Shown: positions 58,893 through 61,800 of the stretch, piece after piece
Numbering within the stretch: position 1 is the first letter of the stretch
Layout: every line of letters begins with the position of its first letter
Assembly (NCBI GenBank): GCA_001244265.2
Contig: CDLV01000017.1
Span: 496,001 to 560,000 of the forward strand
DNA length: 64,000 nucleotides
From: Microbotryum violaceum
Lineage: Eukaryota
Direction of reading: 5' to 3'
Position numbers and translations under genes: made by a program
The notes under the pieces: model-generated
The model's input: the letters and a program-made list of their open reading frames with translations, nothing else
The model's database searches: none
Told to the model about the DNA's origin: nothing

Positions 58893-61800
58893 TGTAAGGC
58901 CCGTGCGCCTGGGCCTTAGGAAGAGGGGACGCGCGCCTGGGCACTCTTAGTCTCTCTCCAGCGACTGATACAAGTGTCCAGGTGAGCACAAGGTGGATCA
59001 GAAGGCATTGTCATACCAGCGACTGATACGAGTGTCCAGTGTCAATTCTACATACTTTGGTCCTGTGATCCTTGTCGTCGTCGCTCAGGTGTACACTCCA
59101 ACGGGGTGTATTACACTTTTTTTTCACAAAGGTCAAAGACGCACACTGCCACGTGCGCCAGCGACACACCCACGGAACGAACAAACGACAACGAACGGTA
59201 ACAGACAAACATGGCGCGTGGCAAGAACTCCACCGCCCAACCAGCGCCACCATCGGCACCAGAGGAAAGGGAGGACAGCTCGGACGATGAACAGGAGGTT
59301 GCAACAATGCCAAGGGGCATGAAGCTCAGCGCGCCCAAGCTTGCGAACGGCACAAAACTCACTCTCTCCTCGATCCGCGCATTCCTCAACGACATGGACA
59401 ACATGTTCTTCCAGTACCAAGTGAAGAACATGCGACTAAAGATAATGTTCATCGCCAACCACATTGAACACGAGGCGCTCAAGGATTGGCTGGTGACGGC
59501 GACGGAGGAACGCACGTGGGACAAGCTTAAGGTCGCCTTCATCCGCAAGGCACTACCCTTGGATTTCGCCTTCACGACAGAGCAGCGTATTTGCCACAGC
59601 CACCAAGGCAACCACGACTACGCGACGTGGGCTTCGGGACTTCGGGCCTCACAGCTGCAGCGCGGCCAGACCGCCCTCAGCGACATCGAGTTCATCAAGA
59701 TCCTACTGTTCAACATGGACCCTCAATTGAGCGTTGTTCTACGACAGAACGACCTTCTGTTGGGTACTGGCCTACACCAAGATGATTTAGACTACGTGGC
59801 GGCTTCAAAGGCGGCGCTCCCCAAGCTCAAGACATTATCTTACGAGGTGTTAGAGCGATTGGCAAGACCCCAATGGAATGTGATCATAGTGGTTCGTCCT
59901 GTAGCAACTCCCCGAACGCAAACCTCGACTACGAGCCCAAAGACCAGCTCTGGCCGACCTTTCGTGACCTCGGTGACCACTCGACGCAGGCCGACGAGAC
60001 TCACGGACCCGATGAAGGATTATCTCTCGGAGAAGGAGGGATGCTTTAGCTGCAGACGCATCAAAACGGATCACCGCGCGAGCGACTGTACAGCCAACTG
60101 GCAGCAGGCACCGGATGTCCCGGAGGGGTGGGCCGAATTCGAAAAGAAGACGGCGAAAGCGGCTAAGAACGACACCCTCCATCAAATTGCGGAAAACTCA
60201 GAAGACGACATCTCAACGGACGAAGAAAACGAGTACGCCCCTCAGTTCATCTCCACCATTCCCATCACTCTGCACAACAACACGAAGTCAAAGACGTTGC
60301 AGGCACTTGCTGACTCTGGGGCCTCTTCCTCCTTTATTGCAGATAAGGTGGTTGAGAAACTGGGGTTAGTCATGCATCGTCTCCCTGTTCCTACATTGGT
60401 CAAAACTGCAATCAAAGGCCAAGTACGCGCGTTTCATGTTACCTCGTTTGTAAAGATTCCGATCACGCTTGAGAATGGCGCATGGGAAGCGGGACACACG
60501 ATTCTGAAGGTGGCTAAACTGCAGGAGCCCTTGGAAGTGGTACTGGGGTTCAACTTCCTTGTAAAACACAAGGTTACCATCGACTTTGCGGCACACAAGA
60601 TCCTGGTGCCACATCCGACCATGCCTGACGTAAAGATTGACCTTCTTGCGCCGGTCTTCGGACCCCACCCCCAGCGAGCCGCGGCGAGGAATGCCAAACG
60701 AAGCGATAAAGCTCGGATCAACTGGCGTGCAGTGATTGCCTACATCGACGGGGTCCAGCAAAGGGAAACGGAGTTGACGGAGTTGCGACGGCGGGAGGCA
60801 AAGCTACGGGTCGAGTTTGCGGATCGGTTCCCGGGGATATTCCTCCGGTTTCGACGTATGAATCACCGGTCCGACACCGAATCGAGCTGAAGGACGGAGC
60901 AACAAAACCGAACTTGAAGGGTTATCGAGCGGCACACCGTTACCGGGAAGCCTGGAAGCGCCTGATTGATCAGCACGTTGCCAATGGCCGCCTTCGAGAG
61001 TCGTCATCAGAGTTCGCGTCCCCGGCGTTTGTCATCCCAAAGAAAGGTATGGATAAGGACCCGTCAATCCAACCACGCATGGTCTGTGACTACCGAGTAC
61101 TCAACGAAGGGACGGTCCGAGATCGCACACCTCTACCACTTCCGGACAAGATTCTGTTGGTCTGCTCAAACGCGCGATTCTGGGGGAAGATCGACATGAC
61201 AAACTCCTTCTTCCAAACCAAGATGGCCGAGGAAGACATCCAGAAGACGGCGATTGTGACACCGTGGGGATTGTACAAGTGGACGGTAATGCCAATGGGA
61301 CTCTGCAACGCCCCGGCAACGCATCAGCGCCGAGTCAACGAGGCACTTGGAGACCTTATCGGGAGCGTGTGTTTCGTGTACCTTGATGACATCACAATCT
61401 TTGCCGACACCTTGGAGGAACATGAACGACGTGTGCGACTAGTCCTGGAGGCGCTGAGACGGGCGGATCTGTACGTATCGCCGAAGAAGACGGAACTGTT
61501 TGCTGCCGAGTGCTTTTTCCTCGGCCACCAGATCACTCGGGAAGGCATCAAGGTCGATCCTGACAAGGTGGAGCGGATCCAACAGTGGCCGCGACCAAGG
61601 ACGGTGAAGCAATTGCGGGGATTCCTAGGTCTGGTGCAGTATCTGCGGAAGTTCATCGACAAGCTTGCGGATTTGACGGCGGTTTTAGTCCCGCTGACAC
61701 GGAAAGGGGTGCATGTCAACGAAGGCTGGACGGGAGAGCACGACAAGGCGTTTGAGGCAATCAAGTCCTTGGTGGGCAACCTTCCTTCTCTACATCCCAT

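Follow-up and report, generated by a model that had tools for sequence, protein, structure and literature searches.

A T run and a covarying LTR-leader helix in place of a transfer RNA primer site in fungal chromoviruses: possible self-priming from the polyadenylated RNA end

The window analysed here, meaning the whole stretch of DNA, comprises 64,000 nucleotides (nt) of Microbotryum violaceum (assembly GCA_001244265.2, contig CDLV01000017.1, 496,001-560,000 of the forward strand) and holds two related long terminal repeat (LTR) retrotransposons, element A (51852-57004) and element B (58893-63995), which are Ty3/gypsy chromoviruses (Metaviridae). Directly after the 5' LTR both carry a C and a run of eight or nine T. 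This T run is found clade-wide, a covarying helix between the leader and a segment of the LTR abuts it, the LTR edges are exactly defined, and the elements encode no A run as a partner for the T run. The reading that we favour, and to which we give a probability of about 50%, is that minus-strand DNA is primed by the polyadenylated 3' end of the repeat region (R) of the RNA, once this end has annealed to the U run and the leader. By the same comparison of sequences it is about an even bet that a widespread clade of fungal chromoviruses primes reverse transcription from its own poly(A) tail, by way of the junction between the R end and the poly(A). The priming mode is a defining trait of the replication of LTR retroelements.

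The edges of the LTRs were set by the sequence identity between LTRs and by 5-bp target duplications, of which there are three in the window. The 5' LTR of element B is 223 base pairs (bp) long (58893..59115, +; TGTAAGG...TATTACA) and the element is flanked by GATGT (58888-58892 and 63996-64000), the 5' LTR of element A is 282 bp long (51852..52133, +), which is one 58-bp tandem unit more, and this element is flanked by ACAGG (51847-51851 and 57005-57009), and the third duplication, AGCGC, flanks a solo LTR of the B type (48079..48301, +). Because the target duplications make the LTR ends exact, the T run begins 1 nt past the LTR, which is where primer sites lie. In element B the C between the LTR and the T run (59116, +) is the predicted first templated base and the T8 run (59117..59124, +) is the proposed binding site of an oligo(A) 3' end; the leader strand of the helix follows (+), with helix 1 (CACA, 59125-59128), a loop (AA, 59129-59130) and helix 2 (GGTCAAAG, 59131-59138). 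In element A the same stretch (52134..52157, +) consists of C52134, T9 (52135-52143), CACA, the loop TC and GGTCAAAG up to 52157. An earlier note on this DNA, made from the letters alone, had read C-T8/9-CACA-nn-GGTCAAAG directly after the LTR of both copies and no TGG, and its coordinates were confirmed. In both copies the roughly 85 nt that follow the 5' LTR contain no TGG, and a TGG-initiated complement of the 3' end of a transfer RNA (tRNA), expected 0-5 nt past the LTR of a tRNA-primed element, is not found there. ARAGORN detected no tRNA genes in the window and Rfam gave no match across 58800-59300. In further genomic copies, sampled through contigs from 4 of the 16 listed sequencing runs (X1, X3, X7 and X12; five studies in all), the leader loop (59129-59130) is CC or TC in place of AA and the T run is one longer. 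The variation among genomic copies falls on unpaired leader positions.

The LTR strand of the helix lies in the segment CTTTGGTCCTGTGA (59055-59068 in element B; 52072-52085 in element A). Within it CTTTGGTC (59055..59062, +) is the LTR strand of helix 2 and pairs with 59131-59138, including two G.U pairs, the bulged C (59063, +) is the final C of a conserved GTCC block, and TGTG (59064..59067, +), the predicted R end, is the LTR strand of helix 1 and pairs with CACA at 59125-59128. The geometry is 8 bp, two of them G.U, then a 1x2 internal loop and then 4 bp; the pairing with its G.U pairs is as had been described, and both positions that vary between subfamilies sit in the loop. In the sampled contigs no variant is listed for the LTR segment, whereas the bases that follow it directly are variable and have indels. 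When an A run was appended to each LTR end point and the product was folded against the leader, no other LTR position in either copy did as well as the site in question, which reached -18.8 and -19.7 kcal/mol. Shuffled LTRs equalled these energies in 10/60 and 17/60 trials, and thus the pairing in the window alone is not beyond chance. A pairing of the leader with the start of the unique 3' region (U3; LTR nt 5-37) was tried and rejected: it is the best raw duplex when no A run is appended, but it depends on runs of G.U and is not significant (with 35 nt, 17/1000 and 237/1000; with 25 nt, 142/1000 and 594/1000).

Relatives were collected by scanning metagenome contigs with an alignment (A2) of the reverse transcriptase (RT) and 17 homologues, which gave 80 loci with RT identities of 36-60%; a scan of viral contigs with the RT gave no relative. 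The motif C-T7-9 stands directly after the LTR in 40 of the 80 loci, and the other loci are mostly without the region upstream of gag. The search pattern demanded a C, T7-11 and then G/C-A. Sufficient flank was available in 37 of the 40 motif loci, which yielded 38 rows (L031 and L037 have a short flank and L004 is cut at the motif), and together with the two window copies 40 rows were analysed. In these, the run is T8 in 27, T9 in 12 and T7 in one, and all 40 motif-selected rows have the preceding C (CC in two) and G/C followed by A after the run. Both LTRs and target duplications could be recognised in L014, L015, L020 and L036, in each of which C and T8-9 come after a 5' LTR with the end ...CA. 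No T run was present in the inspected part of L045, L072, L061, L063, L076 and L058, whose RT identity is 36-46%, and a poly(A) run at the end of the locus was found in 0/80 loci. In L004 (RT 55% identical), adapter sequence is fused directly to AC-T9-GACATC... (L004:1-60), so that one or more of the sequenced molecules must have had an end at the boundary of LTR and T run, 1 nt inside the LTR. Adapter sequence occurs in only 1 of the 80 loci, this one, and no 3' LTR was recognisable in L004; the end could be that of a replication intermediate or an accident of assembly. In relatives it is also common for a T run to stand immediately before the polypurine tract (L007, L020, L025, L036 and L044, before the 3' LTR), and L052 and L056 have A8-CCCC at that place instead. 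L029 (440-640) has a second LTR end with T run and leader, in inverted orientation and some 130 nt downstream from the forward one, which places an A8 on the + strand.

Across these relatives the helix between LTR and leader is real far beyond chance, as judged from covariation in the aligned sequences. Every family has an LTR block composed of the LTR strand of helix 2 (helix 2'), a C and the LTR strand of helix 1 (helix 1'), 11-71 nt before the LTR end and often reading ...TTGGTC-C-NNNN(N), in which helix 1' is the exact complement of the 4-6 leader bases after the T run and helix 2' pairs past the 2-nt loop. About 18 different helix-1 words were found, each with its own complement, among them TGTG/CACA, TGTC/GACA, CGTC/GACG, CTTC/GAAG, TATTG/CAATA, TACTG/CAGTA, AACTG/CAGTT, CTGCTC/GAGCAG and ACACTC/GAGTGT. 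When cognate pairs of LTR and leader were compared with permuted pairs, the cognate sum was reached by 0/20000 permutations. The alignment on which we rely, A5, has 37 rows and windows set solely by the LTR end, whereas A3 and A4 were anchored on sites chosen for complementarity and are circular to that extent; the covariation values of A3 and A4 are similar to those of A5. L008, L009, L010, L028, L029 and L038 are included in A4 and A5, and exact duplicates (the second copy in L017, L026 and L056) are excluded. MAFFT itself aligned the GTCC block in 36 of the 37 A5 rows and put L028 on another block. In A5, 83.2% of 475 cells are paired compared to 62.1% after shuffling (0/500), and the covariation score is 0.606 compared to 0.241 after shuffling (0/500). 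In controls in which the partner was slid by 1-3 columns, 23-42% of the cells were paired (at most 41.8%) and the covariation score was no higher than 0.137.

The two helices are not kept with equal strictness. The four pairs nearest to the T run are paired in 35-37 rows each, with a total of two G.U cells and one unpaired cell, and the remaining changes in these four pairs are all two-sided. In the eight pairs of helix 2 there are 20 G.U cells and 69 unpaired cells, so that G.U pairs and mismatches are tolerated there. A nearly strict helix 1 next to a tolerant helix 2 is the pattern expected of a site that is re-copied from its primer. In every row helix 1 begins at the first base after the T run. 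The earlier note had held that the idea would fall if the pairing were not maintained in related families, and over the 37 rows it is kept through compensatory changes.

What could pair with the T run was the remaining part of the question. No internal A-rich partner was found in the elements: element B has no A run of five or more and element A has a single A5. The LTR base after helix 1' is A in most rows whose leader continues with CA (C in five of them); where the leader continues with GA, it is mostly T, C or G. Since this base is variable, the U run cannot pair with bases encoded in the LTR, and the earlier claim that the LTR lacks the A run needed for the T tract was borne out for the LTR and also for the element as a whole. 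The T run is pure and of fixed length across families that otherwise share little leader sequence. In the replication of LTR elements the 3' end of the primer must sit at this place, 1 nt past the LTR. For canonical sites this position of the primer 3' end beside the LTR is stated in PMC5006619. A pure T run at the primer position for which no partner is encoded means that the partner must end in oligo(A), and the only universal source of oligo(A) is the poly(A) tail. The predicted duplex of R end and A run with the leader has a mean energy of -18.7 kcal/mol for cognate pairs and -10.0 kcal/mol for foreign pairs, compared to -2.0 kcal/mol for the A run alone.

A sequence of events can be proposed from this. 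The RNA would be cleaved and polyadenylated right after helix 2'-C-helix 1', in the window at ...CTTTGGTC-C-TGTG^A, 47-48 nt before the LTR end, that is, at a predicted poly(A) site after 59067/59068. With cleavage and polyadenylation after helix 1', the 3' end of the genomic RNA would consist of the R end plus A(n), and in element B it is the transcript of 63935-63947, the copy of the primer segment in the 3' LTR (63773..63995, +), that would bear the poly(A) tail. This 3' end would then anneal to the leader of the same RNA or of a co-packaged one, the A tail pairing with the U run and the R end with helices 1 and 2, at a total of about -18 kcal/mol. The primer site would accordingly be laid out as C-U8/9, a helix 1 of 4-6 nt, a 2-nt loop and a helix 2 of 6-8 nt. 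The 3'-OH of the oligo(A) opposite the first U, provided either by a short tail or by a cut resembling the RNase H cut of Tf1, would be extended over the C and on through U5 (the unique 5' region) and R, and the remaining replication would be conventional. In this case the strong-stop DNA and the RNA 3' end would be linked covalently, and for the first strand transfer the DNA could fold back within the molecule onto the adjoining R. Poly(A) site, primer identity and tail trimming are predicted parts of the scheme, and the mechanism as a whole is plausible but unproven. There is precedent for two of its elements, as Tf1 makes its self-primer by an RNase H cut in an RNA duplex (PMC7175516) and initiation in Ty1 and Ty3 needs contacts between the ends of the genomic RNA (PMC4974528).

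The layout of the LTR appears to fit polyadenylation at the predicted place. In 23 of the 33 loci or copies examined there are TATA-like boxes 47-132 nt before the helix 1' end, and their positions suggest that transcription starts 5-85 nt before the LTR segment. An A-rich zone with an AAT core is found at -23..-13 (31 rows); in element B the AAT-cored block CAATTC (59043..59048, +), about 21 nt before the predicted cleavage, is a candidate poly(A) positioning element. Hexamers that are variants of the poly(A) signal, taken from a list of common knowledge, occur at -19..-22 in 8 of 33 rows and gave two matches elsewhere. Downstream of the segment, families with a long U5 have a conserved AGTG(T) block. 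In these families (columns of about 160-195 in A5; 59085-59115 in the window) the order is AGTG(T/A), then in many a G+C-rich hairpin, and TTCCA at the LTR end; families with a CA leader have a short U5 and are without the AGTG block. The putative U5 of element B (59068..59115, +) is 48 nt long, with a conserved GGTGT block and the terminus TATTACA. The general layout given by profile models of LTRs is TATA, AATAAA and a GT-rich part, with the start of U5 set at a G/T-rich stretch (PMC3601003). In L019, L022, L024, L032 and L042 only 12-13 nt separate the segment from the LTR end, and such a U5 would leave no room for R and U5 if transcription began at or after the segment.

Several points weigh against priming by the polyadenylated end. 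The pairing is not significant within the window alone, and a local stem formed by the leader with the 5' copy of the segment would be expected to covary just as well. In the GA-leader rows the predicted cleavage follows C and precedes T, C or G, and cleavage in such a context after C is less favoured. Poly(A) tails are long, and an extra trimming step must therefore be assumed. The A-rich block, which follows the TATA-like box by about 28-36 nt in the short-LTR families, could instead belong to the promoter or initiator. For the authors of the Skipper study the C that faces the LTR made a simple poly(A) improbable as the primer (PMC5006619); here a C of this kind is read as a putative 1-nt spacer or first templated base.

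The local stem is also the basis of an alternative that we consider unlikely but the most serious of those weighed, in which the 5' copy of R/U5 pairs with the leader inside the 5' untranslated region and exposes the U run in a loop, and the oligo(A)/poly(A) end of any RNA, or some other A-rich RNA, primes by pairing with the U run only, so that the poly(A) site of the element need not match the helix. Covariation is blind to which copy of the LTR segment pairs, the upstream TATA-like boxes place the segment within the transcribed 5' region, and a pure U run would still imply an A-run partner; moreover, Ty1 needs R nt 1-7 to be paired with a sequence downstream of its primer site (PMC4974528). 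On the other hand, the A:U duplex of 8-9 bp would be weak on its own, at the mean of -2.0 kcal/mol given above, one continuous strand would explain more simply why helix 1 and the U run abut exactly in every row and why G.U pairs are scarce in helix 1 only, and the layout resembling a poly(A) signal at the segment would be a coincidence. Improbable to a greater degree is self-priming from the 5' end as in Tf1, where the 5' segment would fold onto the leader, RNase H would cut after helix 1' and the 3'-OH would be extended, with the U run and the C copied first and later trimmed by integrase. T run aside, the architecture is indeed like that of Tf1 and Tj1, with a leader complement inside the LTR and an intervening U5 that has a hairpin in many of the long-U5 relatives, the presumed start of transcription is about 5-15 nt before the segment in some short-LTR families, and the Tf1/sushi and Tcn1 clades of chromoviruses are predicted to be self-priming (PMC6317226, PMC7175516). 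However, the complement of the LTR that in Tf1-type elements starts 0-5 nt past the LTR starts here at 10-11 nt, behind the T run, and a pure T8-9 kept across families at 36-60% RT identity would have no role. The 3' end of the primer would be 10 nt from the LTR end, yet integrated LTRs stop at the CA before the C, and the families with a U5 of 12-13 nt would keep a repeat of at most 12 nt for strand transfer. The distance from the TATA-like box to the segment also ranges from about 35 to about 120 nt, so that the segment is not generally the 5' terminus.

Both of these explanations rank below priming from the junction of R end and poly(A), because neither explains the pure U8-9 run or its abutment to a helix that is Watson-Crick only, and the Tf1-like one ranks lower also because of the primer 10 nt off the LTR end and the repeat of at most 12 nt in short-U5 families. 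It is very improbable indeed that the T run and the complementarity are without a role in priming and that priming occurs further downstream: the window-only statistics, which are not significant, would agree with this, but C-T7-9 in 40 of 80 loci with a strong covarying helix abutting it speaks against it, as does the fact that no TGG or other candidate site is present.

To our knowledge three kinds of minus-strand primer have so far been listed for LTR elements: the 3' ends of tRNAs, fragments from within tRNAs, and the RNA 5' end with which Tf1 primes itself. Tf1 and Tf2 of S. pombe and Tj1 of S. japonicus are, like the elements here, chromoviruses without a tRNA site in which a segment of the element's own LTR complements the leader and no host primer is used. 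The primer of Tf1 is made of the initial 11 nt of its RNA, which pair directly past the LTR and are freed by RNase H, whereas here C-T8/9 intervenes, the segment lies well downstream of TATA-like boxes, the T run is without an encoded partner, and the proposed primer is the polyadenylated 3' end and not the 5' end. A similar trait is that of the Dictyostelid Skipper elements, in most of which a degenerate polypyrimidine tract with a leading C replaces the primer site (Spaller et al. 2016, PMC5006619). In that paper no complement in the LTR was found, the mechanism is called unknown, a novel mode of self-priming is suspected and the feature is said to be unknown outside the amoebae. The window elements share the trait, a pyrimidine tract with leading C directly after the left LTR and no TGG; compared by description, the tract is degenerate in Skipper and here is a pure T7-9 with a covarying complement in the LTR. 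SM-Tcn1 of Selaginella has a conserved thymine-rich leader and no recognisable primer site or self-primer (Novikova et al. 2010, PMC2864245). The Tcn1 clade includes elements of basidiomycetes, one of them from Sporobolomyces, and Sporobolomyces proteins are also among the relatives of the window elements. Plant Tcn1 elements were later predicted to be self-priming on the basis of a complement of at least 10 bp, 0-5 bp past the LTR (PMC6317226), and a complement at that distance is not the case in the window elements. A review passage (PMC7175516) has it that novel priming mechanisms were proposed for Tcn2-5 by Goodwin and Poulter in 2001.

Pairing between R/U5 and the leader is known from other systems. 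In retroviruses, U5-leader stems are formed by pairing of R/U5 with sequences just downstream of the primer site. Pairing of RNA ends, or of R/U5 with the leader, is needed for the start in Ty1 (CYC5:CYC3) and in Ty3, which has a bipartite 5'-3' site (PMC4974528). Ty1 and Ty3 prime with initiator methionine tRNA (tRNAiMet), whereas here there is no tRNA site and the 3' end itself is the proposed primer. The earlier note had asked that prior description be checked in the literature, and the outcome is divided: polypyrimidine or T-rich leaders are known (Skipper, SM-Tcn1), but a literature search, which did not cover supplementary files and figures, found neither a covarying LTR-leader helix abutting an oligo(T) run nor priming from an element's own poly(A) end, and a search on the priming of Tcn2-5 likewise brought up no such account. 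We would class the case with self-primed reverse transcription, as a further form of it, and it extends the polypyrimidine site from amoebae to a large fungal clade.

If priming by the polyadenylated end is true, it would be a mode apart from tRNA, half-tRNA and Tf1-type 5' self-priming, and it would explain the polypyrimidine sites of Skipper, which have been a puzzle since 2016, and the T-rich leader of SM-Tcn1, known since 2010; the comparative data turn this puzzle into a testable model. It would also show how a retroelement can free itself from the need for host tRNAs, and it would tie polyadenylation, and possibly deadenylation, directly to replication. For annotation it would mean a new class of primer site, as current LTR finders would call such elements primer-site-less.

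As for the elements themselves, both copies contain the Pfam domains RVP_2, RVT_1, RT_RNaseH, Integrase_H2C2 and rve in that order. A chromodomain (PF00385 Chromo, E 1.5e-14) was found at the C-terminal end of element B (translation of 63422-63772), and PF00385 was also found in relatives. The window elements have LTR ends TG...CA, a target duplication of 5 bp and, ahead of the 3' LTR, a polypurine tract. The interior of element B (59211..63772, +) codes for gag-protease, RT-RNase H, integrase and chromodomain and is interrupted by stops or frameshifts, and its polypurine tract is GGTGGTGGAGAG (63761-63772, +). The 3' LTR of element A is at 56781..57004 (+) and its polypurine tract at 56769-56780; element A, like element B, is broken by stops or frameshifts. 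The RT of element B is 90% identical to proteins named Microbotryum by their sources and 53-66% identical to proteins named from other Microbotryomycetes (among them Rhodotorula, Sporobolomyces and Rhodosporidiobolus). The 58-bp tandem unit is present three times in the 5' LTR of element A and twice in its 3' LTR and in all B-type LTRs, and one contig of sequencing run X3 skips one tandem unit of the B LTR (joint 58957-59016). The contigs of the four runs end at the LTR edges of element B (58893 and 59115), and among 17 of their 32 loose ends none had A's at 59067/59068, a result that has no bearing on expression or on the poly(A) site. Contigs of three runs continue past 58892 into sequence that is not LTR-like (loose end GTTTGAGCGCC...), and this crossing means that copies or genomes without element B at this place exist.

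Elsewhere in the window, a long open frame with eIF4G1 and MIF4G domains (19539-24143, +) is the host gene for eIF4G, and a fragment of a DEAD-box helicase lies at 40262-41518. The end of the window is a nest of retroelements, in which a fragment of a Copia-type reverse transcriptase (49924-50451, +; RVT_2, E 2.6e-16) lies between the solo LTR and element A. At 28796-29404 there are imperfect tandem repeats of 117-126 nt that are 79-86% alike (families D8 and D10).

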